Of a stretch of 64,000 nt of DNA, positions 1,603 through 38,249 are shown piece by piece. Origin of the DNA: Alphaproteobacteria bacterium (GTDB lineage: Bacteria; Pseudomonadota; Alphaproteobacteria; UBA9219); NCBI GenBank assembly GCA_033763555.1, contig JANRKK010000045.1, forward strand, positions 2,277 to 66,276. Reading direction: 5' to 3'. How positions within the stretch are numbered: position 1 is the stretch's first letter; each line of letters begins with the position of its first letter. The translations under genes and the position numbers were made by a program. The notes under the pieces were generated by a model that saw only the letters and a program-made list of their open reading frames with translations, did no database searches and was not told where the DNA came from.

Positions 1603-3165
1603 ATGGTCCAGATTTCATTGAAAAACAAAGCGGCTCAAGCCAAGCCGCAGATCCACGAAGATGTGGATAATATGCTCGCGCAAGTTGAGAATCTTGCCCG
1701 CGAAGCGCGTCAGCCTGAAATCACGGAAACCATCAACGAAGCGCCGCGTAGCTTCCCGAATTTTACCCGCCTGCTACAAATTTCGGGTCGTTACCTGATG
1801 ATGAGCGACATTGTCGCCCTGCTGGCTGCTTTTACATGCGGTGGCGTCGGAGCCTGGGCCGTTGATGTCTATCTGTTCAACGAAGGCTTCCAGGAATTGT
1901 TCCATATTATGTCATTGCAGCAATTTGCCATCTTCACAGGCTTGGGCGCAGTTGCGCTGCTGTGGCTGGACACCAAAGGCCATTACCGTCAGCGCCTCCC
2001 TTATTGGGAAGTCATTGGTCATCTGGTTGCCGTGGTCATGCTCGGGTTCCTTGCGGGAGGCTTTATTCAATTCGCTTCCAAGAATGACTCCTCCCGTTTG
2101 TGGATGGGGTTGAGCTGGCTGATGTTTGGCGTGTTTTTGCTGACGGGCCGCACCCTCGTGCGCCGTATGTTGGAGAAACACGGCCTCTGGAAAGTTCCAG
2201 CCGTCATGATCGGCACAGGCCCGACGGCCCAGGCAGCGATGAGTACCCTGAATCGCGAACGCAAGATGGGTTTTGCGCTGGTCAAACAAATTGATGCTTC
2301 GGCTTTGGAAACCTTGTCGAAGCCGCATGCCTGGAAGCATTTGCTGATGACGCATGGTGCATCGCATATTTTCCTCGCGCTGGAAGGCAGTGAAGTCGAA
2401 AAAAATTCAGTGGCGATCAAATCCATGGTTCGCGCGCGCGTCCCCTGCTCCATCATTCCGGCCTGGCTTGGCTTGCCGTCCAGCACGCTGTCGCCGCATC
2501 ACTTCATGATGCATGACGTTGTGCTGCTGCATAACACCAACCGCTTGCAATTGCCCTTGCCGCGCCTGCTCAAGCGCAGCTTCGATATTCTTCTCGCAGG
2601 AACAGCCCTTGTTGTACTGTCGCCTTTGTTTGCTGGCGTTGCTTTGTTGGTGCGTCGTGATGGTGGCCCGGCCTTTTTCAAGCAGGCGCGTGTTGGCCGC
2701 GGCGGACGTCTGTTCAATTGCTATAAGTTCCGCTCTATGCGCATCGATGCCGAGAAATTTCTCGCGCGTTATCTGATTGAAAATCCCGCTGCCGCACAGG
2801 AATGGCGCCAGTTTCAGAAACTGAAAAATGATGTGCGCGTCACGAAGTTTGGCCAATTCATTCGCCGCACCAGCCTCGATGAATTGCCGCAGCTGATCAA
2901 TGTGCTGAAAGGCGAAATGAGCCTTGTAGGTCCGCGTCCCTGTATGCCCGGACAGGAAGATTTCTATGCCGAAGATTTCAGCTTCTATGAATCCGTGCGC
3001 CCGGGCATCACAGGCCCATGGCAGGTCAGCGGTCGCAACAAGCTGACTTTCAAGGAACGCGTCCAGCTGGAATCCTGGTATGCGCGTAACTGGAGTCTGT
3101 GGATGGACGTTGTTATCGTTCTGAAAACAGTCCCAACGTTGCTCAAAAAAGATCAGGCGTTTTAA
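1603..3165 (+). CDS. Undecaprenyl-phosphate hexose-1-phosphate transferase (WbaP/PssA/ExoY-family priming sugar transferase) with an N-terminal multi-TM domain
   Basis: 520 aa. The C-terminal bacterial sugar transferase signature is present ([11 protein letters not shown]...[21 protein letters not shown]), with TM helices in the first 200 aa. Confidence 0.85.
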
Positions 3166-3223
3166 GAGCGTTTGCCTGATCAATATTTAAATCATTTATA
3201 CAGATCAAGCAGGCGATTTATTC

Positions 3224-3688
3224 ATGCCGCGTCCCTACAAAATATCTGATGAAACCCGTCGCCAAAAATCCGAACAACTGAAACGGCAATGGAAAGATCC
3301 TCAGTTTAAAGAGATAGCTAAAACGACTGCTAGAAACACCATGAAACAGCAATGGGCCAATCCGGAAATCAGAGCTCGGCGAACATCTGCTGCCAGAAAA
3401 CGAATGACACGATTAAATGCTGACCCTCTCTTTAAAGCTAAAGCAAGAGTAGCTGGAGGAAAAATTTTAAAGCGACTAAACGCAGATCCTGTAATGCGTA
3501 GCAGAATAATGGCCGCGTCTCGTGAAGCCATGGTGCGATTGAATGCTGACCCGGCATTTAGAGCCAAAAACGCAGCTGCGATGAGTGAGCGCATGAAAAA
3601 GCTGTGGGACAATCCCGAAAGCCGGGAAGCAATGTTGGAGGCCCGAAGAATTAAAAGAGAGCTACGCTCTAAGCCACCCACTCCGTAA
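3224..3688 (+). CDS. Hypothetical basic protein built of six tandem ~21-22 aa helical repeats (LNADPxF[KR]AK..., WxNPExR...)
   Basis: 154 aa, lacking Cys, with a run of six similar ~21-22 aa segments containing the motifs LNADP and W-x-[DN]-P-[EQ]. GC is visibly lower (~45%) than the neighbours. The 3' end overlaps the convergent GH10 gene by 27 nt. Confidence 0.55.
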   Translation: MPRPYKISDETRRQKSEQLKRQWKDPQFKEIAKTTARNTMKQQWANPEIRARRTSAARKRMTRLNADPLFKAKARVAGGKILKRLNADPVMRSRIMAASREAMVRLNADPAFRAKNAAAMSERMKKLWDNPESREAMLEARRIKRELRSKPPTP

Positions 3689-4810
3689 ACTTTCCCACAA
3701 AGGCCCGCGCTGATAATTTGTATCGAGCGGCAGGCTTCCTTGCGCATCGCCTAGGGCATCTTCCAGCCAGCTGCGGCGGTCGCTCAACCCCCATGTCAGC
3801 AGCGTATTGACGGATCCGCTTTCTTGCACCATGGCGAGGTAGGTCTGCACATAATTTTGCGCGAAGGTGCTTCGTTCATAGCCCTCACCTGGAACACGGC
3901 TAAGATCGAGATCAAGCTCGGTTATATAAATCTCAATCCCCAAACCACGAACTGTTTTCAGGAATTCGGTAAAGTCCCTGCCTCCCAAGGGCAGATGGCA
4001 TCGCAAATGGCTTTGCAGTCCCAGCGCATGAATTGGAACGTTTTTGGTTTTGAGTTTTTTGAGAAGATTCAGAAGAAGTTTTCGTTTGGCATATCCATAG
4101 CCATCACCGCGTTCCAAACCAAAATCATTGTAGACAAGCGTAAGCCCCGGATCGACCTGATGTGCATAGTGGAACACCTGAGAGATGTAATTCGGGCCAA
4201 GTGCTTTGAGCCATAGCGTCTCACGCAAACCATCCTTGCGCGGTGAACGCGGATCGATCGCCTCATTAACGACATCCCAATTGCGGATCATCGGTGAAGT
4301 TTCGGCAACTACACGCTCGATATGTGCGCGCAGAATTTTTTCTGCGGTCTTTTTATTTTTGAGTTCGGGCACAAGCCATGATGGGTTTGCATGATGCCAG
4401 ACCAAAACATGTCCACGCATCGCCAGGCTGTTGGCTTGCGCAAATTGTGCCAGACGATGATAGCCGCTGAAATCAAATTCCGCAGGCGATGGTCGCAACG
4501 CATCCCATTTCAACTCACCCTCGGGAACAAGCAACGCGACTTCCCTCTTCAACGCCTCGGCAAAGCGATGGTCATTGAGCTGGCTGCTTTTAACAGCAGC
4601 ACCATAAAGGCGGCCTTTTTTGCGGGCCAAAGCCCCCAGGCCTGGGCTGCGAAAGCCCGTTTCCGGATAAAGGCTGAGAGATTCGCATCCGGCTAGGCTC
4701 AGGCCTGAAAATCCGAGCAGCGGCAGGCCCAAAAGAGCCCGTAAAAAATCGCGGCGCAAAATATTTTTTGGGGAGAGAAAGCTCGAATGCATGCAAACGG
4801 ATAAAAACAT
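3662..4810 (-). CDS. Glycoside hydrolase family 10 (endo-beta-1,4-xylanase-like) with a twin-arginine (Tat) signal and lipobox
   Basis: The GH10 catalytic motifs WDVVNEA (acid/base) and ITELDLD (nucleophile) are present. The N-terminus carries RRDFLRALLGLPLLGF...LAGC, a Tat motif plus lipobox-like Cys. Confidence 0.8.
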   Translation of the reverse strand: MFLSVCMHSSFLSPKNILRRDFLRALLGLPLLGFSGLSLAGCESLSLYPETGFRSPGLGALARKKGRLYGAAVKSSQLNDHRFAEALKREVALLVPEGELKWDALRPSPAEFDFSGYHRLAQFAQANSLAMRGHVLVWHHANPSWLVPELKNKKTAEKILRAHIERVVAETSPMIRNWDVVNEAIDPRSPRKDGLRETLWLKALGPNYISQVFHYAHQVDPGLTLVYNDFGLERGDGYGYAKRKLLLNLLKKLKTKNVPIHALGLQSHLRCHLPLGGRDFTEFLKTVRGLGIEIYITELDLDLSRVPGEGYERSTFAQNYVQTYLAMVQESGSVNTLLTWGLSDRRSWLEDALGDAQGSLPLDTNYQRGPLWESLRSGWLRA

Positions 4811-4949
4811 AAGAAAAAGAAGGGCGAAATAGAAAAATTGGATAAAATTTAAAGTAAATCATCCGTTAATACTAAGTATAATTAAAAAGCGATTAGTCAT
4901 ACGCATCTAAGATGGACCTTGATTTCAACAAGTATTCAAGGTCTTTCCC

Positions 4950-5459
4950 GTGAAAAATTACTTAAAGATATTTTCCGTTTTGAGCCTTATTGCGCTTGCG
5001 AACTGCGCGCAAACTTCGGCTGTATCTGACGGAACCACTATCCCCTCTGAAACCCTGGCCCCCCTGGCCAGCTGGGTTGGACAGGCCACCAAAGTCCCCA
5101 TGGTGTCCTTACCCATTACAGTTGCCAGCAATACCCGGCTGAAATCAGCCATGGGCCTGGAAGGCGTTCAACAGGCCCGTGCCATGGCAGCCTATCTGCC
5201 TGGCCAGATCGTCATCAATAACCTGGCCTGGGACCCTGAATCGCTGCGTTCCCAAAGCTATTTGGTCCATGAGCTTGTCCATCATGCCCAGCTCCTTAGC
5301 GGCCGTAAGTATGCCTGCCATGCGGCCAAAGAAAGCGAAGCTTACAGGCTGCAAAATCAATGGCTTGTCGAGCATGGCCTCTCGGCTATCACCAGTGACC
5401 AATGGATCGCCGAAATTGCATCCTGCAAGGGTGATGCTGACGACCATGGGTCGCTCTAG
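4950..5459 (+). CDS. Hypothetical lipoprotein with an HExxH motif (possible small zinc metallopeptidase)
   Basis: 169 aa with signal/lipobox MKNYLKIFSVLSLIALANC and the motif HELVHHAQ. An AT-rich divergent promoter region is shared with the GH10 gene. Confidence 0.5.
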   Translation: MKNYLKIFSVLSLIALANCAQTSAVSDGTTIPSETLAPLASWVGQATKVPMVSLPITVASNTRLKSAMGLEGVQQARAMAAYLPGQIVINNLAWDPESLRSQSYLVHELVHHAQLLSGRKYACHAAKESEAYRLQNQWLVEHGLSAITSDQWIAEIASCKGDADDHGSL

Positions 5460-5706
5460 CCTGACCTAAGTCTTCCTTTGATTTTTACCGATAAGTCAAA
5501 ATATTCAATTAATTTCAATTAGTTGAATAGATATCACATTGTTTTAAAAATACCACATAGGCCTTAAAAGCTTTCCCTGGGCCTCGATTTCCCCCTGTTA
5601 ACTATAAAAATTTGTGGAAAAAATATAGCGGACTCCTTAGAACATGGGGGTCTTGTGAGGGGCTTCGACGGTCTTGGCCGCACGCAAAAAACGTAAGGGG
5701 AACATC

Positions 5707-6285
5707 ATGAAAAAGCTTCTTTTAGTCATTGCACTCGTATTCTCGATTGCCGGAATTTCTCCGGTACACGCAGCCACCTGGACGAACGAAGTTCAGGCAG
5801 CCATCCAAAGCGGCAATTTTGAACAAATCAACGTCATCGGCGCAAAAAATCCTTCGGCCGCTGGCGACATCGCCGTCTATCTGCTGCAGCAGTCTCAGAA
5901 CAAAGCTCTGTCGCAAGATGTGCGCGTGAAGCTGTTTACGGCTGCAACGCCGTTCGCAGGTCAGATTGCCCCGAACGACACGGCCGCTGCAGGCAAAATC
6001 ATCAATGCGATGCTGGCTTTGGCGAACAACCCGGCTTTCCAAAAGACCAATCCGAACGCTGCCGCTGACATCTACGCCAGCGCTCTGAACATGAGCGGTC
6101 AGCCGAACATGATTGTTGGCAACCCCAACCTGCACAACGCCGTTCTGGCTGATGCCGATGATTTCCTCGGCAACGCTCCGGCGGATGCGGACAAGAGATT
6201 GCGTGAACAGGTCAGCTTGGCTTTGTTTGTCGGCGCTCCCCCTCCCCTGGGTCCGCGCGGCATCATCAACCCGAGCTTTGAGTAA
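5707..6285 (+). CDS. Hypothetical secreted protein (Ala/Asn/Pro-rich)
   Basis: Start chosen at MKKLLLVIALVFSIAGISPVHA (signal peptide), preceded by the RBS AAGGGGAA. The ORF-track start at 5674 is probably too far upstream. Confidence 0.55.
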   Translation: MKKLLLVIALVFSIAGISPVHAATWTNEVQAAIQSGNFEQINVIGAKNPSAAGDIAVYLLQQSQNKALSQDVRVKLFTAATPFAGQIAPNDTAAAGKIINAMLALANNPAFQKTNPNAAADIYASALNMSGQPNMIVGNPNLHNAVLADADDFLGNAPADADKRLREQVSLALFVGAPPPLGPRGIINPSFE

Positions 6286-6326
6286 TCACGTTTAGGTTTT
6301 GTTAGGCTTTTGACGTCTTGAATAAC

Positions 6327-6357
6327 CCCCGGCGGGTCCTCCGCCGGGGAGTCTTTT
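6327..6357 (+). terminator. Rho-independent terminator (CCCCGGCGG-GTCCT-CCGCCGGGG followed by a T-run)
   Basis: A GC-rich hairpin plus TCTTTTG immediately follows the 6285 stop. Confidence 0.6.
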
Positions 6358-6377
6358 GAGAATAACCGGAGGGTTGA

Positions 6378-7685
6378 ATGAAGAGAGTGTTTCTTGCTGT
6401 GGTCATTCTGACTGTCAGCTTTGTGGTGGCAAAAACCGCGCAAGCCGATGCCGGATTGCTTGGCCAAAACGTGCAAGTGCTCGATGCGTCGCTGAACATG
6501 CGCCGCTCAACCACCGAACAAATCGACCCCATCCGCGGCCAATCGGTTCTAATGCGCCCGCGTCCGGATTTCGATCCTGTGCCAATTCCCGTTGGCTCGT
6601 TCCAGCTGTTCCCGGCCATCAACGTCGGCACCTACTACGACAGCAACATCTTCGCCTTGCAGAACAATGAAGAGAGAGACCTTGTATGGAAAATCAACCC
6701 GACAATGTCTTTCCTGTCCAACTGGGGTCGTCATGCGCTCGGATTTACGGGGCTGGCGGATATTGATTACTACACCGTCGATGACAAACAGAATTACGCA
6801 GGCGGCGCCATGCAGGCAGAAGGTCGCTATGACATCTCCGAACAAATGTGGCTGTCAGGCGTTGGCGGCTATCAGCGTGTAACAGAACTCAAGGGTTCTC
6901 CTGCCGACCAAGGTAATGCCGCTGGCCCCAGTCAATATGATCTTTACAGTGCTGGCGCGCAGTTTTATCGCGGCGTTGGTCTTCTGAAGACCACGGTCAA
7001 TTACAACTTTGGCTACTACGAATACAGTCCCGTTGAAATCATCGGTGGTGGCACAGCAAGCCAAAGTGCGCGTGACCGTACCCAGAACAAGGTCGATGGT
7101 GAAGTCCGTTACGATGTTACGGAAAACCTCAAGCCCTTCATCCGCGGTGCTTATAACTGGCGCGACTACACGACAACCAGCTCTCACTCATCGAATGGTT
7201 ATAATATCGATGTTGGTGCTGCGATGGATTTCGGTGGCATCACAACAGCCGAAGCCTATATCGGTTACATGTCGCAGGACTATTACAACTTCATGAGCGG
7301 CGTGGTGGATGCGATCGATTTCGGCGGCAACCTCCTCTGGAACGTAACGCCTCTCACTTCGGTTGAATTCCGTGCCCGCCGCAGCATTGAAGAAACGACG
7401 GTTGGTTCAGCTTCGTCCTTTCTGGCTTCGGAAGGCCAGATGATCCTGAGTCATGAGCTGAGACGCGACATCGTTCTCCAGTCCCGCGTGATCTATGACG
7501 GGTTGGATTACAACGAAATCGAACGCCATGATGATCTGTATGATGTCGGCGTCGGCGCGCGTTACTACATGAACCGTAACTTTTATGGCGACTTCACTTA
7601 TGACTTCCAGCGCCGCACGACGGATGCTGCTGGTCTGAACTATGACCGCCATATCGCGTTCCTACGGTTTGGCGCGCAATACTAA
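6378..7685 (+). CDS. Outer-membrane beta-barrel protein, probable partner of the downstream short OPX export protein
   Basis: 435 aa with signal peptide MKRVFLAVVILTVSFVVAKTAQA. It is Tyr/Gly/Asn-rich with alternating beta-strand patterns and a C-terminal aromatic end (...LRFGAQY). It sits 14 nt upstream of the Wza-like gene. Confidence 0.7.
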   Translation: MKRVFLAVVILTVSFVVAKTAQADAGLLGQNVQVLDASLNMRRSTTEQIDPIRGQSVLMRPRPDFDPVPIPVGSFQLFPAINVGTYYDSNIFALQNNEERDLVWKINPTMSFLSNWGRHALGFTGLADIDYYTVDDKQNYAGGAMQAEGRYDISEQMWLSGVGGYQRVTELKGSPADQGNAAGPSQYDLYSAGAQFYRGVGLLKTTVNYNFGYYEYSPVEIIGGGTASQSARDRTQNKVDGEVRYDVTENLKPFIRGAYNWRDYTTTSSHSSNGYNIDVGAAMDFGGITTAEAYIGYMSQDYYNFMSGVVDAIDFGGNLLWNVTPLTSVEFRARRSIEETTVGSASSFLASEGQMILSHELRRDIVLQSRVIYDGLDYNEIERHDDLYDVGVGARYYMNRNFYGDFTYDFQRRTTDAAGLNYDRHIAFLRFGAQY

Positions 7686-7698
7686 CTTTAACTGACAG

Positions 7699-8277
7699 GT
7701 GTCCATGCCGTTCAGGGGTCTTCTGTTCGCTGCTGTTGTGTGCGCTGGCTTAGGTTCTGCGCCTATGCTGTCTGTGGCAGAAACGGCAACGCCATCCCCT
7801 GCTCCAGCTCCCCAGAAAATCAGCGATTATGTGCTGGGTGTTGGCGATAAGCTGAAGATTACCGTCTTCGGTGAGGACAACCTCTCGGGTGACTTTGAGA
7901 TTTCTTCGACAGGCGTGATTTCCATGTCCCTGATCGGAGAAGTGAAAGCTTCGGGTTTGACTATTACGCAGGTGCAGAACACGATTACCCGCAAGCTGTC
8001 CGAGGGCTACATGAAGAACCCGCATGTCAGCCTTCAGGTCTTGAATTACAGGCCCTTTTTTATCGTGGGTGAAGTGATGAAGCCCGGCAGTTACAATTAT
8101 GTAAATGGCATGACGGTGATCAATGCTGTCGCGCTGGCCGGGGGTTATACATATAGAGCCGACAAAGACGATATTAAGGTAAAGCATGGAGGGCCCGACG
8201 CCAAGGAAGAGCCTGCAAAAGAAGGCACGGCTATTCTTCCCGGCGATGTTGTTAACGTGCCTGAAAGATTTTTCTGA
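7699..8277 (+). CDS. Polysaccharide export protein, Wza/GumB/ExoF-like OPX (short form, periplasmic Poly_export domain only)
   Basis: 192 aa with a signal peptide and a Poly_export-like core (YVLGVGDKLKITVFGEDNLSG...ITQVQNTITRKLSEGYMKNPHVSLQVLNYRPFFIVGEV). It is too short to contain a C-terminal OM-spanning helix domain. Confidence 0.8.
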   Translation: MSMPFRGLLFAAVVCAGLGSAPMLSVAETATPSPAPAPQKISDYVLGVGDKLKITVFGEDNLSGDFEISSTGVISMSLIGEVKASGLTITQVQNTITRKLSEGYMKNPHVSLQVLNYRPFFIVGEVMKPGSYNYVNGMTVINAVALAGGYTYRADKDDIKVKHGGPDAKEEPAKEGTAILPGDVVNVPERFF

Positions 8278-8327
8278 TTAATTATTAGCCCCTTCCATGG
8301 GGTCTTAATACCCGAAAGCAGGATGAT

Positions 8328-10472
8328 ATGAATCAAGAACAATTGATGATGATGACGGACGTCCGCGAAATCTGGCTTTTCGTGCGCCGTAACGCCAAGC
8401 TTATCCTGTTGATCGCCGTCAGCGCTTCTATCCTGGCCTTCATATCGACCTTTATCATCCCGCCTCGCTACACAGGCGAAGCGGTGATCATGCTCGACCC
8501 GCGCAAAACGAACCTGACCAACGTTCAGTCAGTTCTCTCCAACCTTCCTGCTGAAAACGCAGCCGTCCGAAGCGAAATCGACATCATTGAATCGCGGGCC
8601 GTCATCAACCGCGTCATTGAAGAGCTCGACCTGCTCAACAATGCCGATTTCAACCCCAGCCTGTCCGGTACGCGTTGGTTCCTCCGCCTTTTCGCCAGCC
8701 GCAAGCCCGAAAGCAAGCAGCAACAGATCAGCGAAGACCGTAGCGCTATTGCCAACAAGCTGACCAAGCGCCTGACAGTCGAGAATGACGGCCGTTCCTA
8801 CAGCATCGTCCTCAAATACCGTGATCGCGACCCCGCCCAGGCTGCCAAGATTGCCAATTCCTTTGCTGATCAATATCTCGTTGATCAGCTGGAAGTTAAG
8901 TACGACATCACCCAGCGCGCCAACGCCTGGCTGTCCAAGCGCCTTTCCGATCTACGCGATAAGGTTGGCGTCGCCGAGCGAGCGATTGAAGACTACAAGA
9001 CATCCAACAATCTGGTCGATGTCGGCGATGAAACCATCACGCAACAGCAGCTAAGCGCCATCGATGAACATTTGCTGGAAGCCCGCGCCGAAAGGTCACA
9101 GGCCGAAGCGCGCTACACCAGCGTTAAAAATATGGGCGAACATGCCCTTGAAACATCGTCCGTCATCATCGCTTCCCCGTTGATTCAACAATTAAAGCAG
9201 CAGGAAGCTGAAGTCCGCCGGAAAGAGGCTGACCTCGCCACCCGCTACGGCGACCGCCATCCGATGATCATCGATACGCGTAATGAGCTGCGCAGTATCC
9301 GCGACAAAATTGCCGAAGAAATCAAAAAAATCGTCGCGGGTCTTAAGAATGATTACGACATCGCCTCCAGCAAGACGGACAGCCTGGAGCGTGAACTGAC
9401 CCGCCTGAAGGCCGAAACGGGCGAAGGTAACAAGGCCATGGTTGTCCTGCGACAAATGCAGCGCGAAGCCAGCTCCAACCGCAGCCTGTATGAAGGTTTT
9501 TTGAACCGCTTTAAGCAGATCGCCGAGCAGCAGGATCTGCAGATTGCAGATTCCCGTATCATTGCCCGCGCAGAACCGCCGATTAAACCACACTTCCCCA
9601 AAAAGTGGATATTCACAGGTGTCGGCGCGGCGGCAGGCCTGGTTCTGGGCTTCCTCTTGACGCTTCTGCTGGAATATCTCGACCGTGGCATGCGTTCGCT
9701 GACGGCGGCTGAAAAGCTTTATGGCATTTCAGGATTGGGCATCGTTCCCCTTGCTGAAACATCCGAAGGCCAACTGCCAACCGATTATCTGCTGGAAAAA
9801 CCGCTATCGATCTATGCCGAATCCATCCGGTCTATCCGTGCTGCTATCCACTTCTCAAACGTCGACCGTCCCCCAAAAACTGTTGTCGTTACCAGTTCCT
9901 TCCCCAACGAAGGGAAGACTGTGTTTTCATCCTCCCTGGCCCGCTTGTTGGCAAAATCAGGGCAGAAAACCATCCTGATCGACGCTGATATGCGCCGCCC
10001 GCGCATCCATAGCATTCTGGGTCTCGACAAAAATAAACCTGATCTGGCCTCAGTTCTGGCTGGCAAGGCTACACTTGCCCAAGCCCTCCAGAAGGACGCC
10101 AGCGGTGCGGATGTCATCATCGCCCGGGCCCGCACCATGAATCCGCAGGATTTGCTGAATTCCCACCAGATGGAAAAGCTGCTCAATACGCTGCGCGAAA
10201 ACTATGATATGGTGATTATCGATACGCCTCCGGTCATGGCCGTGGCTGACGCCGCGCTCATCGGCCAGAAGGCGGATACGACGGTTTATGTTGCCCGTTG
10301 GTCGGCCACACCCAAGGAAGTCATCGGTGAAGGTCTGAAGCAGTTGGCAAAGTTCAATATCCGCCTTGCGGGCATGGTGCTGACGCAGGTCGATCTCCAA
10401 GACAAGAAGCAATACGGTTACGACGACTACAGCTACTATTATGGCCAGTACAAGAGCTATTACACGAATTAA
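8328..10472 (+). CDS. Polysaccharide co-polymerase PCP-2a / tyrosine autokinase (Wzc/ExoP-like chain-length determinant)
   Basis: 714 aa with an N-terminal TM, a Wzz-like periplasmic coiled coil and a second TM. The C-terminal P-loop ATPase domain carries SSFPNEGKTVFSSSLA and DTPPV, and there is a Tyr-rich tail YGYDDYSYYYGQYKSYYTN. Confidence 0.85.
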   Translation: MNQEQLMMMTDVREIWLFVRRNAKLILLIAVSASILAFISTFIIPPRYTGEAVIMLDPRKTNLTNVQSVLSNLPAENAAVRSEIDIIESRAVINRVIEELDLLNNADFNPSLSGTRWFLRLFASRKPESKQQQISEDRSAIANKLTKRLTVENDGRSYSIVLKYRDRDPAQAAKIANSFADQYLVDQLEVKYDITQRANAWLSKRLSDLRDKVGVAERAIEDYKTSNNLVDVGDETITQQQLSAIDEHLLEARAERSQAEARYTSVKNMGEHALETSSVIIASPLIQQLKQQEAEVRRKEADLATRYGDRHPMIIDTRNELRSIRDKIAEEIKKIVAGLKNDYDIASSKTDSLERELTRLKAETGEGNKAMVVLRQMQREASSNRSLYEGFLNRFKQIAEQQDLQIADSRIIARAEPPIKPHFPKKWIFTGVGAAAGLVLGFLLTLLLEYLDRGMRSLTAAEKLYGISGLGIVPLAETSEGQLPTDYLLEKPLSIYAESIRSIRAAIHFSNVDRPPKTVVVTSSFPNEGKTVFSSSLARLLAKSGQKTILIDADMRRPRIHSILGLDKNKPDLASVLAGKATLAQALQKDASGADVIIARARTMNPQDLLNSHQMEKLLNTLRENYDMVIIDTPPVMAVADAALIGQKADTTVYVARWSATPKEVIGEGLKQLAKFNIRLAGMVLTQVDLQDKKQYGYDDYSYYYGQYKSYYTN

Positions 10473-15550: not shown

Positions 15551-15552
15551 TC

Positions 15553-16632: not shown

Positions 16633-16770
16633 CAGTCTGTCGTGAGATTAAGGGTTATGCGCAGGCAATGATTAAAAAATCAGCCGCTGTAATATGGGCA
16701 TTGTATATAGCATATAACGTTAAACTTCAAGTTATTACAATAAGTTATTGAATTTTCTGTAACTATAGGT

Positions 16771-17922
16771 TTAGCGTTTTGCGAGCTTTCGCCCAAGGGC
16801 CATGGCGGGCATTTCGACAAAGCGGTTCATGAGGGCTGAAGCTGTCAGGGAAGCTGCCAGTACAACCAAAACGACTGCTCCATAGGGTAATATCCCCAGC
16901 AATTCACGGAACAAAAGAATGAGGATGGGTAAGTGAAGCAGATAGAGACTGTAGGAGATATGCCCCAGCCAAACTAAAGCTTTAGCTTCCAAGAGTTTCC
17001 GAATTTGAGCAGCTTCAACGGCCAGTATTACTAGAACCACCGCGCCAACGCCGTACAGAACATCCGCATAATGCGAATGCGGAATGGGGAACATCAATAA
17101 AGGAATAAGCAGTAGCGCATAGCGCTTGGGTGCCGATAGCTTGCGCATATAGCCATGGATTTCTCTTGCGTGCTTGCTGATTAATATTCCGGCCATGAAA
17201 AACGGAATAAACCGTGCCGTAATAACCCAGGTAATAAGAAAACTGTCAGTTCGGACAAGCCAATGATCCGTCTGTCCTGAAACCAGCAAAAGCCCTGTAG
17301 CGACAACGTATAAAATGATACCTGCAATAACAGCCTTTTTTGTGCTGCGGCATAGCAGCATGAGAAGTGGGAAAATAATCGAGATGCGCATTTCATAAAC
17401 CAGCGACCACATCACGGTATTGAGGGACATGGTTTTTTCCGTTCCCACCATCAGAAGATGTCCCATGAAGGTAAGAAAATCGGGCGGCGCCGCAGGCCAT
17501 ATGCCTTGCAGCCATTGGCTTGTCCCCTCGCCTGTATGGCCAAACCCTATTTGATACAGCAAGGCCGCAAGGAAGATGGATACGAAGAAAGGTATGTAAA
17601 TCCGGCAGATGCGTTTGATAAGATAATGCGGATAATCCGGCTGTTTCCCGCGCAAAAACGGCAAGGCCAACACATAGCCGCTGAGAACAAAAAAGATAAT
17701 CACCGAAGCGTGGCCGTTGATGAAAAGCCGCAAAGGCGTATAGCGTATCCAATTCAACTGCCAGCGCAGCTCTTCCGGCCAGGTTAGATAACAATGCGAA
17801 AAAACGACTACGAGCGCGGCAATACCGCGCAAGGAATCCAGCGCTTCGATCCGCCCCGAGAAAGCGTTTTTGACGTCTTTATCCATGCGTGCTTTTAACC
17901 CATCGCCCAAAACCGGATGCAT
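16771..17922 (-). CDS. Acyltransferase family 3 membrane protein (polysaccharide O-acetyltransferase, ExoZ-like)
   Basis: 383 aa, polytopic, with the acyltransferase_3 motif LDSLRGIAALVVVFSHCY. Confidence 0.8.
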   Translation of the reverse strand: MHPVLGDGLKARMDKDVKNAFSGRIEALDSLRGIAALVVVFSHCYLTWPEELRWQLNWIRYTPLRLFINGHASVIIFFVLSGYVLALPFLRGKQPDYPHYLIKRICRIYIPFFVSIFLAALLYQIGFGHTGEGTSQWLQGIWPAAPPDFLTFMGHLLMVGTEKTMSLNTVMWSLVYEMRISIIFPLLMLLCRSTKKAVIAGIILYVVATGLLLVSGQTDHWLVRTDSFLITWVITARFIPFFMAGILISKHAREIHGYMRKLSAPKRYALLLIPLLMFPIPHSHYADVLYGVGAVVLVILAVEAAQIRKLLEAKALVWLGHISYSLYLLHLPILILLFRELLGILPYGAVVLVVLAASLTASALMNRFVEMPAMALGRKLAKR

Positions 17923-18087
17923 ACTAATGTATTGAAATGTAATAAGAAATTAATTTTTCTCTTTCCTGTGCAACCCCTTTTGCTATAGATTGCCGAGGAA
18001 ATCAGCCATATCGCAGCGCAATATTCCTGCCGAAATCGGCTCATACGAATTGATAATGAGATTTTTGTCAAAGGACACTCCGTAACT

Positions 18088-19119
18088 ATGAAGCGCGCTG
18101 TTGTTTTTCCGGGATTAGGTAGTCAAGCCATCGGTATGGGTGCGCAACTGGCGCAATCCTTTGCTGAAGCGCGTCTGGTGTTCGAGGAAGTGGATGAGGC
18201 TCTCGGCCAGAACTTGACAAGCCTGATGTTCACCGGACCGCAAAAGGAGCTCGATCTTCCCGAAAATGCTCAACCCGCGCTTGTTGCCGTAGGTGTTGCC
18301 GTCGCGCGTACCCTCGAAGGCCAAGGCGACATCGATCTGCCAGATATGGCCCATTACATCGCAGGCCACAGCCTTGGTGAATACACAGCGCTCTGCGCTG
18401 CCGGAAGCTACGCGTTGGGTGATATGGTGCGCTTTTTAAAGCAGCATGGCCAGATCGTCCGTCAGGCATTCCCTGACCCTATCGGCGGTATGGCCGTTCT
18501 GAGTGGCGTGGATTGGGCGGTTGCACAGAAAATCTGCGATGAAGCCGCGCAGGGAGAAGTCTGCTTTACCGCCAATGATAATGCTGCCGATCAGGTGGTG
18601 ATCAGCGGCCATATTGGAGCCATCAACCGGGTGCTTGAAACTGCGCCTGCGTACGGATGCCGCCGTAGCATAAAACTCCCCGTTTATGCGCCTTACCACA
18701 GCCCGTTGGCTCAGCCGATACTCGACATGACAGGTGGATTGCTCAAAGCCCTGCCCGTGAAAAAGCCGTCATTGCCATGGCTTGCCAATGGTATTGTTGA
18801 GACCGTTACCGATGCCGCTGGTATTGCCGATCTGTTGAACCGTCAGGTAACCGGGCGTGTACGCTGGCGTGAATCCATGATCTATCTGAAAGACCGTGGT
18901 GTCGGTGAAATCGTCAATTGCGGCCCTGGAAAAGTTCTTGCTGGGCTCGCCAAGAAGACTCACGAGCAGGTCCGGACAATTTCGCTGAATACGCCTGAGG
19001 AAATCTATGGCTTCCTCGATAGTCTTGCTTCCGGAACAGATTCGTTGGCGGCCGAGTCTGCTCCCGCCGAAACGCTGGAACGCAAGCAAACCATCTATTC
19101 CAGCCAGGAAAACCTATAA
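18088..19119 (+). CDS. fabD: Malonyl-CoA:ACP transacylase (FabD) with a ~30 aa C-terminal extension
   Basis: Active-site GHSLGEYTALCAAG and overall FabD collinearity. It is not linked to fabG/acpP/fabF here. Confidence 0.85.
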   Translation: MKRAVVFPGLGSQAIGMGAQLAQSFAEARLVFEEVDEALGQNLTSLMFTGPQKELDLPENAQPALVAVGVAVARTLEGQGDIDLPDMAHYIAGHSLGEYTALCAAGSYALGDMVRFLKQHGQIVRQAFPDPIGGMAVLSGVDWAVAQKICDEAAQGEVCFTANDNAADQVVISGHIGAINRVLETAPAYGCRRSIKLPVYAPYHSPLAQPILDMTGGLLKALPVKKPSLPWLANGIVETVTDAAGIADLLNRQVTGRVRWRESMIYLKDRGVGEIVNCGPGKVLAGLAKKTHEQVRTISLNTPEEIYGFLDSLASGTDSLAAESAPAETLERKQTIYSSQENL

Positions 19120-19164
19120 TTAACTAAATCCAGTGCATAACCGACGGACTGATTCTATCCGTCC

Positions 19165-20145
19165 GTGAGCAAGCCTATGGCCACTTCCAAAAAACGTGAC
19201 ATCGCACAGGATATCGCCAAGGCGATCGGCATTCTCGCTGTGGTCTACGCCCATGTTCTGTGGGGCCTGGTCAGTTCCTCTATTTTTGCAGATGGCAATC
19301 CGTTGCATTTCATCGATATGGGACTGCAAATCTACACGATGCCGCTTTTCTTCCTGCTGGCCGGGTATAACGCCCCATCCAGCCTCAAGCGTTCTACGCC
19401 TGCTGAATTTATCCGCAAACGCGCCAGTATGCTGATACCTGTTTATCTGATCTGGTCGGTGGTACAGGGCGGCATGAAATACGCGCTGAGCGGACAGGTG
19501 AATGATCCTGTAACGCTTCAGGATCTTTTAGCTATTCCCTACAAACCCATTGGCCAGTTTTGGTTTCTCTATGCTCTCTTGATTTACCATATCGCTACGG
19601 CGTTGCTTTACCGTCGGCCATGGGTTCTTGCATCTCTTGCCATTGCAGCCTTTCTGGCCAATCCATGGCTGGAGGATTTCCCCCGGGATTATTGTTACAG
19701 CGGTATTTTTTATGTTCTCGGATTCCTTCTGGCAAACAAAGATCTTCCGTCCATCAAGGCAAAACACATCGCCCCTGCCCTTGGGGTTGCGGTTATTGTG
19801 TATGCCTGCGGATTGGCCATGAATTGGAGTTATGGCCTGGACTCGCGCAATCTCTTGCTGTTGCCTGCAACATTATCCGGCATTGGGCTGGTTATGTTTT
19901 TATCTCAAAAATTGTCGGCATCGTCTGCAGGACCTGCTCTGGCCTATGTCGGCCGCGCATCACTCGCCATCTATGTGCTGCATGTCATTTGCTTTGCCGG
20001 ATGGCGCGCTTTTATACTGAAGCTTGGTGTGACGGAGGCCTATGTGCATCTCGTAACAGGTACGCTGGTTGGCCTCGGCGTACCTCTACTACTTTATAGT
20101 GTTCTAGGGCGCTTTAAGCTTCGTCGTTACGCCTATCTTGGCTGA
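19165..20145 (+). CDS. Acyltransferase family 3 membrane protein
   Basis: 326 aa, polytopic, with N-terminal AKAIGILAVVYAHVLWG. It is 45 nt downstream of fabD. Confidence 0.75.
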   Translation: MSKPMATSKKRDIAQDIAKAIGILAVVYAHVLWGLVSSSIFADGNPLHFIDMGLQIYTMPLFFLLAGYNAPSSLKRSTPAEFIRKRASMLIPVYLIWSVVQGGMKYALSGQVNDPVTLQDLLAIPYKPIGQFWFLYALLIYHIATALLYRRPWVLASLAIAAFLANPWLEDFPRDYCYSGIFYVLGFLLANKDLPSIKAKHIAPALGVAVIVYACGLAMNWSYGLDSRNLLLLPATLSGIGLVMFLSQKLSASSAGPALAYVGRASLAIYVLHVICFAGWRAFILKLGVTEAYVHLVTGTLVGLGVPLLLYSVLGRFKLRRYAYLG

Positions 20146-21654
20146 AGCCGGATCTTTCGGCATTTCAGCCTGCCAGTGCCGTGCGACCAATACACCGCTG
20201 AGCAGAAGCCACAACCCCCATCCAGCAGGTGACAGTGCTTCTTCCTGAAAAATGCCATTCACGAAAAGAATAGCCAGCGCCAGCGGAATAAGCGTGAGGC
20301 GCGGTTCGGAAACAAAATACAGGCTCGATTTCCACACGGCTTTCCAGAGATACCAGTAGAAAAAGAAAAGCACGATGGTACCGATACCCATTTGATAGAA
20401 CGCCACGCCAAAAGCGCTTTCAAATCCGAAGTTGGCGCCGAAATTCTGGAAGAATTGAAGGCCCGAGGTTGTTTCATTCAACCCCTTGCTGGACAGGGTA
20501 CCACCGACGCCGATGCCGTGGCCTGCGGGATTCATCAGAAATCCTTTGATGCCGCCAAGGAAGCCCATAACGTGGAAATCCCGGGTCGACAGGCCGTAGG
20601 CTATCCCCACCACAGCATAACCGATCATACAGGCCAGCAGTGCCGTCAAAACCCAGGCGCGATTGCGCGTCCGTATATAAAGCATGTAAAGCCCAAAACA
20701 GACGAGCAGCATAATAAGAGGGCCTTTGGCACCCACAAGAGTTGCAATGACGAAACAGAAGAAGGCCAGAAAATAAAAGCGGTATATGAAACAAACGATG
20801 CAACAAAAAACCAGATCATAGGCATAGGAAATAGGATGAAAGATAGGGCCGTTCGGACGCAAAATACGGAAATCCAGTCCCATCATGCCTGATAGATTCA
20901 GATAATTTCCACTGCTGTGATTGATGACGTCCATGACGTTATCAAACACTTCGGTTTCGGCGGAAGCCGTTGAGAATTTCAGGCGCATAAAATCGGCGGC
21001 ATTAAAGAAGGAATACAAATCATACGTCCAAAAAAACTCCACCAGCCCCCATGTCACAAGAATAAGGGCCAGAAGACGGATGATATTGATGACGTAACCA
21101 AGCCTCAGCCGGAAACCGAATGCCAAGCCGATTGCCAGCAGCAATCCGCCCGTAAGATAGACGCGCACATAGACAAGAACGCTTGACAGGTTTACCTGTA
21201 AAAGTCCCAAAACGGCATAAAATCCGACGACAACAAAGAAGAAAAACATCCAGCGCAGAAGCGGCAGATTTTCCTTTGGAAAGCGGCCGCGCAGTTTTAG
21301 CCAGACCGGAAAGCATATCAACGATGTAAAGAAAATATTCAGAAAGCCTGTCCCCAGAAGCAGACGAAAATCGTCAAAATCTTGGATATTGGCGGCTGCT
21401 AAGGCAATAAAAGCATTCTGAAGAAAAAAACATCCCATAAGCAAGGCAAAAGAGACTTCGGCACTGAGCAGGACAGCCAGAAGTGTCATGGCAATCAGCC
21501 ATATGAATCCAGGTGATCCGAATCCCGTTCCCAAAACGGCATGTACCCCAAGGATTAGCAAAGCCACGGTCATAGCCATGACGGCCTGAATCAGACTCTG
21601 CCGTTGGTCCATGGTGACGGCGTTAATTGTTTTGAATTGCGTGCGCAATGTCAT
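20104..21654 (-). CDS. Polytopic membrane protein, candidate Wzy-type polysaccharide polymerase
   Basis: 516 aa with more than 12 TM segments and a large loop. It is the first gene of an overlapping string (GH5 and UXS upstream, with ATGA/4-nt overlaps). Family assignment rests on topology and context only. Confidence 0.5.
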   Translation of the reverse strand: MTLRTQFKTINAVTMDQRQSLIQAVMAMTVALLILGVHAVLGTGFGSPGFIWLIAMTLLAVLLSAEVSFALLMGCFFLQNAFIALAAANIQDFDDFRLLLGTGFLNIFFTSLICFPVWLKLRGRFPKENLPLLRWMFFFFVVVGFYAVLGLLQVNLSSVLVYVRVYLTGGLLLAIGLAFGFRLRLGYVINIIRLLALILVTWGLVEFFWTYDLYSFFNAADFMRLKFSTASAETEVFDNVMDVINHSSGNYLNLSGMMGLDFRILRPNGPIFHPISYAYDLVFCCIVCFIYRFYFLAFFCFVIATLVGAKGPLIMLLVCFGLYMLYIRTRNRAWVLTALLACMIGYAVVGIAYGLSTRDFHVMGFLGGIKGFLMNPAGHGIGVGGTLSSKGLNETTSGLQFFQNFGANFGFESAFGVAFYQMGIGTIVLFFFYWYLWKAVWKSSLYFVSEPRLTLIPLALAILFVNGIFQEEALSPAGWGLWLLLSGVLVARHWQAEMPKDPASAKIGVTTKLKAP

Positions 21655-22793
21655 GGTGAATCAGTATGCCCGAGGCCCAAAGCTTCTGCCATGGCTTTAT
21701 CAGAATTTCCCCGTGGGTCAATCAAGCCGAAGCGGCCACGATATTCCCAAAGAGCCCAGGGAATGCCCGCTTTTTCAAGCGCCTCACGCACATCCCGCAA
21801 CCAGTTATAACGGCTCTGATCATCAATGTGGGGGCGATAGACACCGAACTCGGTGCAAATGACCCGAACCTTTGAACGCCGCCGCCATTCCTCTACGCGG
21901 CCAATTATTTCTATAATTGTCGCCCGGTTCCAGCCGCGCATGACATATTCTTGAATCTTGGCATCATCCATATCGAAATCGAACTTTGTATCGACGGGAT
22001 AGACAATGGGCGTACGGCTGCGCCATTCCGGCAACCACTCAACGCCATGATGCGTTACAATCATGGGGTCATAAAAATGAAAATCATAAAGAAGATTTTT
22101 GTCCTTATAGGGTTTCATAAGAATAAGTTCCCACCAGCCGCTATGCGGGCCTGTGGTCACGACAAAAGTATTCTTGGGAAAGTCTTTACGCAGATTGTTA
22201 ACCAGCTGTTCCTGCATCTGCCACCAGAGAAAACTTTCGACTGGTGGCTCGTTATACAAGCCCAGAAAAATCCGCTGGGACGGAAAATCCTTGATCACAG
22301 GTTGCAGGTTTTTCCATATTCCCTCGACTTGCGCCATGGTCTCGCGCGGCGTTTCCTTGAGCCTGCTTTCTCCAGCTAGGCCTGGATGCAAATCGATAAT
22401 GACACTCAAACCTTGATTTAAAAGCTCGACAAGGTCACAGCGCAGCTCGGCAAGCCGATCTTTCTGCTCATCTTCATCACTTAAAGTGAGCCAAACAGGA
22501 TGAAGCGGCAACCGGACATAATCGAACCCCTGCCCTCGCAATTTCGGTATATCTTCGCTCTTATAAGATGTGTCCCGGCGATCTTCCCACCAGCGCGATA
22601 AATTCACGCCGCGCTTGAGCGTAACAGACCGTTCTCCACGAGGCGCTTTACTGGCATCGTAGATACATGTATCGGCTGCCATGGCCTTCGATAAAGGCAG
22701 GATGGCGAGCAAAAGAAAAAGTAGGAAAAGGCGGCGCATGCCATGCCACATACACCATAATCGACTTAAATTCACGGATGTTGGCGCGCTCAC
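21651..22793 (-). CDS. Glycoside hydrolase family 5 (endoglucanase-like), secreted
   Basis: The GH5 motifs LGLYNEPP (acid/base) and ICTEFGV (nucleophile) are present, with an N-terminal signal peptide ([22 protein letters not shown]). Confidence 0.75.
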
Positions 22794-23740
22794 GCCGCCA
22801 ACAGGTTTTTAAAATATTCAATCGTCGGCTTAAGGCCGTTCTCCAAAGCAATTTTCGGTTCCCATCCCAGGGCCTTCTTGGCCAGGGAGATATCGGGGCA
22901 GCGCTGGCGTGGGTCATCCTGCATGCGCGGGTGATGGCTGATACTTGAGGAAGATTTGGTCATTTTCATAACCATCTCCGCCAGCTCTTTGATTGTAAAT
23001 TCGCCCGGATTGCCAAGATTGACGGGGCCCGTGAAATCATCCGGCGACGCCATGAGTTTTATCAGGCCATCCACCAGATCATCAACATAGCAGAAAGATC
23101 GCGTCTGGTTGCCGTCGCCATGAAGGGTCAGTGATTTGCCTTCCAGCGCCTGCACGATAAAGCTCGACACAACGCGCCCATCATTCGGGTGCGTGCGCGG
23201 GCCATAGGTATTGAAAATACGAGCAACTTTAATGTTCAGGCCGTGCTGGCGGCGGTAATCAAAGAACAAAGTTTCTGCGCAGCGCTTGCCCTCATCGTAA
23301 CAGGCCCGCGGTCCGATCGGGTTGACATTGCCCCAGTAATCTTCTGTTTGCGGGTGCACCGCAGGATCACCGTAAACTTCGCTGGTCGAAGATAAAAGAA
23401 TTTTCGCTTTCCGGCGCTTGGCCAAACCGAGCATATTGATGGAACCCACGACGCTGGTCTTGGTCGTTTGCACCGGGTCAAACTGGTAATGAATAGGCGA
23501 AGCCGGACAAGCGAGATGGTAAATTTCATCCACCTCCACATAGAGCGGGAAACACACATCATGTCGCATGACTTCAAAATGCGGATTACCAAGCATCGAG
23601 GCGATATTTTCGCGCGTGCCCGTATAGAAATTATCGACGCAGATAACAGCGCATTTCTCGCGCAGCAGCCTTTCACATAAGTGCGAGCCGACAAAGCCAG
23701 CGCCGCCAGTGACCAGAACTCGTTTATAGGCTCGTTGCAT
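22790..23740 (-). CDS. UDP-glucuronate decarboxylase (UDP-xylose synthase, UXS)
   Basis: [19 protein letters not shown]...[10 protein letters not shown]... is typical of UXS-type short-chain dehydrogenases. It overlaps the GH5 gene by 4 nt. Confidence 0.8.
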
Positions 23741-38248: not shown

Positions 38249-38249
38249 C

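Follow-up and report, generated by a model that had tools for sequence, protein, structure and literature searches.

What kind of pathway is encoded by a polysaccharide locus in which recognisable assembly and export genes are interspersed with two exported glycanases, a PPP-family phosphatase, a MurJ-family flippase, a UDP-xylose synthase and a FabD paralog? Such a locus occupies positions 1603-23740 of the window analysed here, a stretch of 64,000 nucleotides (64 kb) from contig JANRKK010000045.1 of the alphaproteobacterial assembly GCA_033763555.1, and an earlier note on this DNA had proposed that it represents a distinct type of exopolysaccharide (EPS) system. Genes were called from an open reading frame (ORF) listing together with hidden Markov model (HMM) scans (Pfam and NCBIfam/TIGRFAM) of the ORFs across the window. 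All 19 of the 19 family-assigned genes matched at the positions given below; every gene call of the earlier note proved correct, and its description of a contiguous Wzy-type assembly and export locus is upheld. Judging from its gene content, the block is very probably a single Wzx/Wzy-type locus for a secreted or capsular heteropolysaccharide of an uncultured alphaproteobacterium. Pathways of this kind are known, and the majority of the helper genes that appear unusual recur in related or already studied clusters. The best lead of the analysis concerns the PPP-family phosphatase, which we infer to be the phosphotyrosine phosphatase of the tyrosine autokinase encoded in the same locus.

The autokinase (bacterial tyrosine kinase, BY-kinase) is fused to a polysaccharide co-polymerase (PCP) of the 2a class (8328-10472, + strand). 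The protein contains Wzz, GNVR and AAA_31/P-loop domains, scores as a BY-autokinase (TIGR01007, 146 bits; cutoff 108) and carries GKT, DADMRRP and IIDTPP motifs. Its C-terminus reads YGYDDYSYYYGQYKSYYTN, with nine tyrosines in the last 19 residues, and the tyrosine cluster is kept in eight orthologs. The next gene, orf200 (10441-11043, +), encodes a 200-aa single-pass membrane protein; the gene begins 32 nt before the PCP gene ends, and its orthologs come after the PCP gene in 11 of 13 close loci. The PPP-family metallophosphatase (12413-13141, − strand; Metallophos, E 2e-14) has all three motifs of the family, GDVHG, GDYIDRG and GNHE. Its nearest relatives of solved structure, in matches that are weak and N-terminal only, are Arabidopsis RLPH2 and a Shewanella PPP tyrosine phosphatase. 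RLPH2 is a bona fide, phosphotyrosine-specific PPP tyrosine phosphatase (PMC12817480). The window ORFs that were scanned included no low-molecular-weight protein tyrosine phosphatase (LMW-PTP).

The pairing of phosphatase and kinase extends well beyond close relatives of the locus. Homologs of its Wzy_C protein at 29-37% identity led to 67 distant loci from Alphaproteobacteria, Methylococcaceae, Lysobacterales, Desulfobacterales, Myxococcota and Gemmatimonas, and counts were taken from the 39 loci with at least 20 kb of sequence. A PCP homolog is present in 29 of these 39, and in 23 of the 39 it is accompanied by both a polysaccharide export protein of the outer membrane (OPX) and a BBP2_2 beta-barrel. 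A PPP homolog occurs in 24 of the 39 loci, in 22 of them together with PCP (22 of the 29 PCP-bearing loci), and the complete set of PCP, OPX, BBP2_2 and PPP stands beside the locus-finding Wzy_C gene in 18. The median identities in the distant loci (46% for PPP, 37% for PCP and 32% for Wzy_C) mark the phosphatase as unusually well conserved. The module of six genes, comprising those for the beta-barrel, OPX, PCP-2a, orf200, Wzy_C and PPP proteins, is spread over Alpha-, Gamma- and Deltaproteobacteria and Gemmatimonadota.

Comparable neighbourhoods occur in named bacteria. On plasmid p1 of Azospirillum sp. TSH100 (L085, 11890-15717), an O-antigen-ligase-family gene is followed by genes for a metallophosphoesterase, a tyrosine autokinase and an orf200 homolog (36% identity over 91 aa, E 6e-9) at the equivalent position. 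There is a 25-nt overlap between the phosphatase and kinase genes and a further one between the kinase gene and that of the orf200 homolog, which makes a tight unit of three genes; a short OPX and an outer-membrane beta-barrel are encoded within 10 kb. In Rhizobium sp. WL3 a PPP gene lies between the OPX gene and two autokinase genes, and in Phaeobacter a PPP gene adjoins YjbH, YjbF and OPX genes. Loss of PssZ, the PPP metallophosphatase of the Rhizobium Pss-I region and the one bacterial counterpart that has been studied, abolishes EPS (PMC6071215, PMC8227245). We found no open-access paper that joins the term "BY-kinase" with "metallophosph*". Two considerations weigh against our assignment: the link between phosphatase and kinase rests on gene neighbourhood, and PssZ has been considered a Ser/Thr phosphatase that works through transcription. 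We therefore put forward the joint reading tentatively, at somewhat less than an even chance. It holds that the PPP enzyme is a dedicated BY-kinase phosphotyrosine phosphatase, a third class beside LMW-PTP/Wzb and PHP/CpsB, within a conserved six-gene module that in this lineage is joined to a unit of a family 5 glycoside hydrolase (GH5) and a WaaL-fold membrane protein and is served by a MurJ-type flippase instead of Wzx.

The export genes of the module point to a particular type of translocon. The OPX protein (7699-8277, +) has 192 aa and contains Poly_export and SLBB domains only, with no outer-membrane-spanning domain or Wza_C helix. Its closest relative of solved structure is the 186-aa protein 9N9A, which aligns end to end; 9N9A ends in -PESFF and the window OPX in -PERFF, and an -R[FY]F C-terminus is kept in five OPX orthologs. 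The gene for a BBP2_2 outer-membrane beta-barrel (6378-7685, +; PF10082, E 5.8e-83, with weak matches to EpsL and PEP-CTERM outer-membrane proteins) ends 13 nt upstream of the OPX gene. A barrel gene is also found directly upstream of OPX in L002, L004, L005, L011 and L089 (the L numbers denote individual loci) and in many distant loci; no sequence match to the barrel was found in the PDB. OPX proteins shorter than 200 aa have the D1D2 architecture and are paired with outer-membrane beta-barrels, which are 18-stranded in Myxococcus xanthus (PMC9601211, PMC9603273). In that species, the Phe203-Phe204 tail of WzaB is needed for binding to the WzpB porin and for secretion of biosurfactant polysaccharide (BPS) (PMC12819527). 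The D1D2-only OPX, its aromatic -RFF end and the adjoining barrel together argue that the window encodes a predicted Class-3 OPX/porin translocon of the type known from Myxococcus WzaB/WzpB. The M. xanthus EPS, BPS and spore-coat pathways (WzaB/WzpB, EpsY/EpsX) likewise place a short Poly_export and SLBB protein by a beta-barrel and a PCP, and the C-terminal aromatic pair of the window OPX aligns with WzaB Phe203-Phe204. However, the Arg106-Arg107 motif through which WzaB contacts its PCP is Lys-Asn in the window OPX, which also lacks a lipobox. Between orf203 and the barrel gene there is a hairpin of 10 bp (6327-6349, +), rich in GC and with a T-run after it; it is terminator-like and may act as a terminator or attenuator before the export operon.

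Which parts of the locus are shared with relatives, and which are its own? Related contexts came from look-ups of exact proteins and from scans of a genome collection and of metagenomes. L004 and L006 proved to be one contig, and the independent loci counted were L002/L003, L004, L005, L011 and L089; exact-protein look-up of the PCP returned a single 4.4-kb Logan contig. The related loci, from metagenome-assembled genomes (MAGs) and metagenomes, have a common backbone in the order phosphoglycosyl transferase (PGT), GH10, DUF6647, orf203, BBP2_2, OPX, PCP, orf200, Wzy_C and PPP, and the left arm is reproduced gene for gene in L002 and L089. Because this order is kept in independent MAG and metagenome loci, the clustering is not due to chance. 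The nearest Wzy_C homologs are 41-61% identical, all from uncultured MAGs. An origin in Acetobacteraceae was considered and dropped, as every close relative is an uncultured MAG that carries the label Alphaproteobacteria, Rhodospirillales or, dubiously, Bdellovibrionales. The last label is attached to several close relatives (L008 and L009; P0028, P0032, P0135 and P0140) despite alphaproteobacterial MAG neighbours, and may denote Micavibrio-like lineages or a mislabel.

The left arm begins with the PGT gene (1603-3165, +; Bac_transf, E 1.5e-65). Its product is assigned to the WbaP subfamily (TIGR03022, 417 bits; cutoff 403) rather than to WcaJ (277 bits; cutoff 411), and orthologs in L002, L010 and L089 are 59-63% identical. 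A GumD/GumM-like, cellobiose-type backbone was set aside on this ground, since the PGT scores as WbaP and not as a member of the WcaJ/GumD subfamily. The gene for the GH10 glycanase, discussed below, is followed by that of an exported DUF6647 protein (4950-5459, +; PF20352, E 2.6e-11), 55-64% identical to its orthologs in L002, L004 and L089. An HExxH-like motif, HELVHH, is invariant in the window protein, in L002 (18183-18659) and in L004 (17483-17986), which suggests a small exported metallopeptidase-like protein that is always encoded beside EPS export genes. Next comes orf203 (5674-6285, +), a conserved orphan of the backbone with a signal-peptide-like N-terminus, whose orthologs (35-47% identical) hold the equivalent position in L002, L004 and L089. 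DUF6647, both conserved orphans (5674-6285 and 10441-11043) and the beta-barrel had been overlooked before. The claim that the locus holds a full assembly and export core stands for the genes that were named, with the BBP2_2 barrel to be added and a classical Wzx absent. Between the PGT and GH10 genes lies a doubtful gene, orf154 (3224-3688, +), which has no family match and is found in the window only. It encodes a very basic protein in which a (W/L)x(D/N)P-x-(F/I/M)(R/K) motif recurs about seven times, its GC content at third codon positions is 0.40 against about 0.6 in adjoining genes, and it is missing from the corresponding slot of L002, where the PGT and GH10 genes overlap. It may be spurious, or else a small gene that was inserted. 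Relaxed Pfam searches yielded nothing credible for orf154, orf200, orf203 or a 516-aa membrane protein of the right arm.

Past the PPP gene the related loci diverge. The window continues with MurJ, a family 26 glycosyltransferase (GT26), a GT2-like enzyme, an acyltransferase-3 (AT3), the FabD-like protein, a second AT3, the 516-aa protein, GH5 and UDP-glucuronate decarboxylase (UDP-xylose synthase, UXS). At the corresponding place L002 has MurJ, GT2, a PIG-L deacetylase, an Alg14/Alg13-like pair, GT26, an ATP-grasp protein, a homolog of the 516-aa protein and GH5, and L004 has AT3, PIG-L, GT2, GT26, a Wzx-like protein, GT4, a different membrane protein of about 430 aa and GH5. The WecG/TagA/CpsF (GT26) enzyme (14768-15550, −; PF03808, E 3.8e-37; TIGR00696, 92 bits, cutoff 69) has orthologs in six related loci at 45-60% identity, and the GT2-like enzyme (15553-16632, −; Glyco_tranf_2_4, PF13704, E 1.6e-26) has orthologs in L012 and L013. 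Neither AT3 nor the FabD-like protein has a counterpart in any related locus by tblastn. The close group of loci has no true UXS (at least 50% identical), nor does L002 have one at the equivalent position. The GC content of the variable-arm genes is 0.49-0.51 versus 0.54-0.58 for the backbone. We infer that the left arm and export core form a backbone common to the related MAG loci, and that the right arm is exchangeable and sets the chemistry of the polymer.

What polymer might this arm specify? The earlier note had proposed a xylose-containing, O-acylated heteropolysaccharide of a distinct type, with the GH10 and GH5 enzymes as dedicated depolymerases. The identity of UXS (22790-23740, −) is unambiguous by homology: it matches human UXS1 over its full length (residues 1-313, 419 bits, E 1.5e-124), the next enzyme class scores 148 bits, and homologs at least 67% identical occur in six distant loci that carry the Wzy_C/PPP/PCP module. 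Its gene is also translationally coupled to that of GH5. Two points speak against incorporation of xylose, namely that no UDP-glucose dehydrogenase gene (ugd) that would feed UXS is present in the 64-kb window, and that the locus encodes only three sugar-transferring enzymes, none of them a known xylosyltransferase. The same count suggests that the repeat unit would be short, unless other glycosyltransferases contribute. In this context, a GT2 gene lies divergent from a complete rmlC-rmlB-rmlD-rmlA operon for dTDP-rhamnose at 35670-40030, and these genes could feed the EPS locus or another surface glycan.

The GH10 glycanase (3662-4810, −; Glyco_hydro_10, E 2.6e-74) is predicted to be a lipoprotein exported by the twin-arginine translocation (Tat) pathway. 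It has an N-terminal RRDFL motif and an LAGC lipobox, intact catalytic WDVVNE and ITELD motifs, and xylanases as its best PDB matches (171 bits). The Tat motif is kept in the orthologs of L002 and L016, and a tatC gene lies within the window. The slot between the PGT and DUF6647 genes is held by GH10 in three independent loci, with L002 and L089 having it at the equivalent position. In the metagenome scan the single sequence found no relatives and a three-sequence alignment was needed; of 41 loci no shorter than 8 kb with a GH10 at 33-60% identity, 19 also encode a homolog of the EPS core of the window, often a WecG-family glycosyltransferase directly upstream, or a PGT or PCP. On the strength of these 19 loci, the GH10 lineage appears to be a recurrent member of polysaccharide loci. 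The enzyme does not track UXS, however: L002 has GH10 and no UXS in its 21 kb, and GH10 is also found in the promonan cluster (prmA-Q) of Sphingomonas sp. LM7, the product of which is linear, built of 3- and 4-linked Glc, Gal and GlcA, and free of xylose (PMC11340318). Because promonan combines GH10 with a xylose-free polymer, GH10 is no argument for xylose, and only UXS is. A role of GH10 and GH5 as dedicated depolymerases is plausible; against it, deletion of the promonan GH10 gene (prmN) had no phenotype (PMC11340318).

O-acylation of the polymer is likely, given two genes for predicted membrane O-acyltransferases of the AT3 family, AT3a (16771-17922, −; PF01757, E 2.4e-39; at least eight transmembrane segments) and AT3b (19165-20145, +; PF01757, E 8.3e-33; weak matches to NolL and OpgC). 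The FabD paralog (18088-19119, +) lies 45 nt upstream of AT3b. It is about 52% identical to Bartonella FabD and 57% identical to its nearest homolog, has a 30-aa C-terminal extension, and scores below the equivalog cutoff (TIGR00128, 230 versus 261 bits). The nucleophilic Ser in GHSLGE and the catalytic His are retained, but the equivalent of Escherichia coli Gln11 is Leu and that of Arg117 is His; this pair is unique among the 120 nearest homologs, and in an alignment of 120 sequences including the query, Gln is present in 118 and Arg in 119. In FabD, Arg117 binds the malonyl carboxylate and Gln11 is an oxyanion-hole residue. Because the Arg117 equivalent is lost, normal malonyl transfer by this paralog seems unlikely. 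Its position suggests that it may supply an unusual acyl group or donor for the acyltransferase, and as a singleton it could instead be a decaying gene. For the proposed polymer as a whole, we regard xylose as possible and the complete description as somewhat less likely than not, though better placed than the two rival explanations given below. The label of a distinct type in any case says little, as variable arms differ freely between related loci.

Which protein polymerises the repeat units bears on whether the glycan is secreted or cell-bound. The locus offers two candidates, both predicted to be GT-C-like membrane proteins. The Wzy_C-family protein (11040-12434, −; PF04932, E 5.9e-19), a polymerase or ligase, yielded an AlphaFold2 (AF2) model with a pLDDT of 87.8, for which the top PDB fold was WaaL 7TPG (E 4.6e-6, TM-scores 0.56/0.63), followed by FtsW. 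The 516-aa protein (20104-21654, −) has 13 transmembrane segments and no Pfam or NCBIfam match, and its model (pLDDT 86.8) gave WaaL 7TPG as the only significant PDB fold (E 2.9e-4). For both proteins, 7TPG is the sole strong match, with SEDS proteins next. Describing the 516-aa protein as a second Wzy-like protein thus finds no support in family models and some in its WaaL/Wzy-like fold. Profile comparison of the 516-aa and Wzy_C families gave a probability of 7.6%, so that only fold comparison ties the 516-aa protein to WaaL. The 516-aa family lacks a Pfam model; a word-indexed search returned 29 matches and a profile search 658 cluster representatives, and eight of ten remote members scanned had no credible Pfam match.

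The other two of these ten members are fusions, namely P0347 (842 aa), in which a member of the 516-aa family carries a C-terminal GH5 domain, and P0374 (1000 aa), in which it follows an N-terminal PCP tyrosine kinase. In the window, the gene for the Sec-exported GH5 glycanase (21651-22793, −; Cellulase, E 4e-16) overlaps both the UXS and the 516-aa genes by 4 nt, in an operon that runs UXS-GH5-516-aa. A GH5 gene followed directly by one for a polytopic membrane protein is found in seven loci (the window, L002, L012, L004, L014, L015 and L017); in L004, L014, L015 and L017 the partner belongs to the family of about 430 aa, for which no relation to the 516-aa protein or Wzy_C was detectable. 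The GH5 protein has Cel5A endoglucanases as best PDB matches and intact NEP and TEFG motifs. Because of the gene overlaps, the pairing in seven loci and the fusion, we consider GH5 a probable coupled partner of the polymerase-like protein and not a stray cellulase. P0347 and P0374 are each a single database representative, which tells against this view insofar as they could be gene-calling artefacts.

These data also bear on a second explanation, that the product is a cell-bound glycan resembling a capsule or O-antigen, with Wzy_C serving as a WaaL-type ligase onto a lipid or protein acceptor and the 516-aa protein as the real polymerase. Across related MAG loci with differing glycosyltransferase sets and sugar chemistry, Wzy_C is 44-61% identical, which is unusual for a polymerase specific to its repeat unit, and its best fold match is WaaL, whereas the 516-aa family changes along with the variable arm and occurs in a fusion with a PCP. 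An rml operon and a pair of ArnT-like and PAP2 genes are also close by. However, both proteins match WaaL, so that Pfam and fold comparisons of the models do not separate Wzy from WaaL, and the combination of PCP-2a and OPX is one typically seen in the export of EPS or capsule and not in O-antigen ligation. Moreover, the promonan protein PrmJ, which belongs to the O-antigen-ligase family, was annotated as Wzy by its authors, and its deletion gave an EPS-minus strain (PMC11340318). We consider a cell-bound product of this kind unlikely.

A Wzx/Wzy-type pathway also needs a flippase. The MurJ-family protein (13237-14793, +; TIGR01695, 419 bits, cutoff 235; secondary Polysacc_synt_3 match, E 1e-8) is the only member of the multidrug/oligosaccharidyl-lipid/polysaccharide (MOP) superfamily, and the only flippase candidate, in the locus. 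No second murJ is present in the 64-kb window, and no protein scored as Wzx-type (Polysacc_synt) among its scanned ORFs. The MurJ gene adjoins the PPP gene in L002, L005 and L011 and lies elsewhere in the locus in L012. Loci without MurJ (L004, L007 and L017) carry a Wzx-type gene instead: L017 encodes a protein with a Polysacc_synt_3 score of 205 bits, and L007 one with a weak Polysacc_synt match, a homolog of which is present in L004. MurJ and Wzx were never found together in one sampled locus, in what is a small sample. Recruitment of MurJ as repeat-unit flippase in place of Wzx would explain this pattern, and we hold it to be about an even call. Two findings count against it. First, the protein resembles a lipid II flippase with a housekeeping role: its score is far above the equivalog cutoff, and it matches the solved structure 7WAW with 275 bits, and keeps the equivalents of Arg18, Arg24, Asp39, Arg52 and Arg270, all the essential Arg residues included. 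Second, a Wzx could be encoded in another part of the genome, as promonan shows that flippases from other loci can substitute (PMC11340318).

The least likely explanation, and in our view an improbable one, is a mosaic in which a true EPS export core is interleaved with an unrelated housekeeping MurJ, a decaying or housekeeping FabD and a nutrient-scavenging xylanase and cellulase: the MurJ score and key residues, the two active-site substitutions of a FabD-like protein with no ortholog above 57% identity (a possible sign of relaxed selection), the closeness of GH10 and GH5 to ordinary xylanases and Cel5A endoglucanases, and the dispensable GH10 of promonan would all fit, but the GH10 slot is kept in three independent loci with relatives by WecG, PGT or PCP genes in many metagenome contigs, GH5 has its 4-nt overlaps on both sides, its membrane-protein partner in seven loci and the P0347 fusion, and MurJ is present where Wzx is absent, and the reverse, in the sampled loci.

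Based on the reading of the block as one Wzx/Wzy-type locus, we propose a plausible mechanism. First, the WbaP-type transferase would start a short repeat unit, of about three sugars, possibly with xylose and O-acylated, on undecaprenyl phosphate. The MurJ-family protein would then flip this unit across the membrane, the locus itself being without Wzx. Polymerisation would be performed by Wzy_C, the 516-aa protein or both, under the control of the PCP kinase, the phosphotyrosines of which the adjoining PPP phosphatase would reset. Finally, the Tat-exported lipoprotein GH10 together with GH5 would trim or release the polymer, GH5 acting in a coupled manner with the 516-aa protein.

Comparison with characterised systems places this pathway among known ones with no exact match. 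We found no collinear characterised cluster; the gene orders of promonan, Pss-I and Azospirillum all differ, and the best plasmid- or chromid-borne PCP, from Azospirillum, is only 35% identical. The 83 matching Sinorhizobium records rank lower, with S. chiapasense, among the matches listed, at 30.7%. The statement that the locus matches no described cluster gene for gene therefore holds for those compared. At the level of families, likeness to promonan is extensive and comprises a polyisoprenyl-phosphate hexose-1-phosphate transferase (PHPT), an outer-membrane beta-barrel, a short SLBB-containing OPX, a BY-kinase, a WecG glycosyltransferase, a Wzy of the O-antigen-ligase family, GT2 enzymes, GH10, AT3 and a second exported glycanase. 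In promonan synthesis the AT3 is essential, and loss of the GH16 enzyme gives rugose colonies (PMC11340318). The promonan cluster differs in its split Wzz and kinase (fused in the window), an extra AAA+ ATPase, PrmE (with no AAA+ gene in the window locus), a Wzx, five glycosyltransferases and a GH16 in place of GH5. It also lacks the PPP phosphatase, MurJ, DUF6647, the 516-aa protein, UXS and the FabD paralog.

The phosphatase finds its parallel in Rhizobium leguminosarum Pss-I, where PssZ, with the three PPP motifs, is encoded in a Wzy-dependent EPS region, next to PCP, OPX and Wzy genes (PMC6071215). The Pss-I glycanases PlyA and PlyB are type I-secreted, and the region is not collinear with the window locus. 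Pss-I also has a Wzx (PssL) and many glycosyltransferases. The Azospirillum TSH100 p1 locus differs in having GT4 glycosyltransferases and methyltransferases and no GH10, GH5, MurJ or UXS, at identities of 34-45%. The succinoglycan (exo), xanthan (gum) and acetan systems follow Wzx/Wzy logic and use AT3-type O-acyltransferases (ExoH/ExoZ, GumF/GumG), and succinoglycan has the dedicated glycanases ExoK and ExsH. None of the three clusters is collinear with the window locus, and their gene sets are not known to include GH10, GH5, a PPP phosphatase, MurJ, UXS or the pair of a barrel and short OPX. Overall, the locus is predicted to work like the M. xanthus Class-3 OPX pathways, and its family-level gene set is closest to promonan, with a Pss-I-like PPP in addition. 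The view of the accessory genes as atypical must accordingly be narrowed: GH10, AT3 and a second glycanase are found in promonan and PPP in Pss-I, GH10, DUF6647, PPP and GH5 recur in related MAG loci, and it is UXS, the FabD paralog and both AT3 genes that lack counterparts in the related loci sampled.

The locus is bounded on the left by ispDF and cinA and on the right by a tRNA-Met gene (23785-23861, −; ARAGORN and Rfam) and an Nramp gene. The tRNA-Met gene (−) and a tRNA-Gly gene (+) flank the lone Nramp transporter gene (23785-25587), and a 444-aa ORF antisense to it (23944-25278) has no family match and is probably spurious. An Rfam scan of the window returned two tRNAs only, with no riboswitch or leader, and a promoter scan gave matches below shuffle expectation and was uninformative. 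Farther to the right, a 4-nt overlap joins the genes for an ArnT/PMT_2-type glycosyltransferase and a PAP2 phosphatase, with the gene of a helix-turn-helix (HTH) regulator coming next (27271-30158), an arrangement that looks like a lipid A or glycolipid modification unit. A XerC/D-type tyrosine recombinase gene adjoins a 639-aa ORF without a Pfam match at 48559-51468. A stretch of lower GC content (0.48-0.50) at 57615-63451 encodes a ROK kinase, two paralogs of the mannitol-dehydrogenase family and a PfkB kinase, and is probably a hexuronate or sugar-alcohol catabolic cluster.

Taken by itself, the locus is one more polysaccharide pathway from an uncultured lineage, routine and unsurprising to a specialist. 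The association of phosphatase and kinase, the GH5/GT-C-like pair and the pattern of MurJ for Wzx are testable leads. The FabD paralog next to an AT3 gene gives a hint, from a single case, of an unusual acyl donor. A polymerase-hydrolase unit that has not been described before is suggested by the GH5/GT-C-like gene pair and by the rare fusions of its membrane-protein family with GH5 and with a PCP. In many bacteria, culturable Azospirillum and Rhizobium among them, tyrosine-kinase co-polymerases are accompanied by the PPP phosphatase. Should this enzyme be the phosphatase of the kinases, the reading of PssZ-type proteins and of how Wzy-dependent export is regulated would have to be revised.

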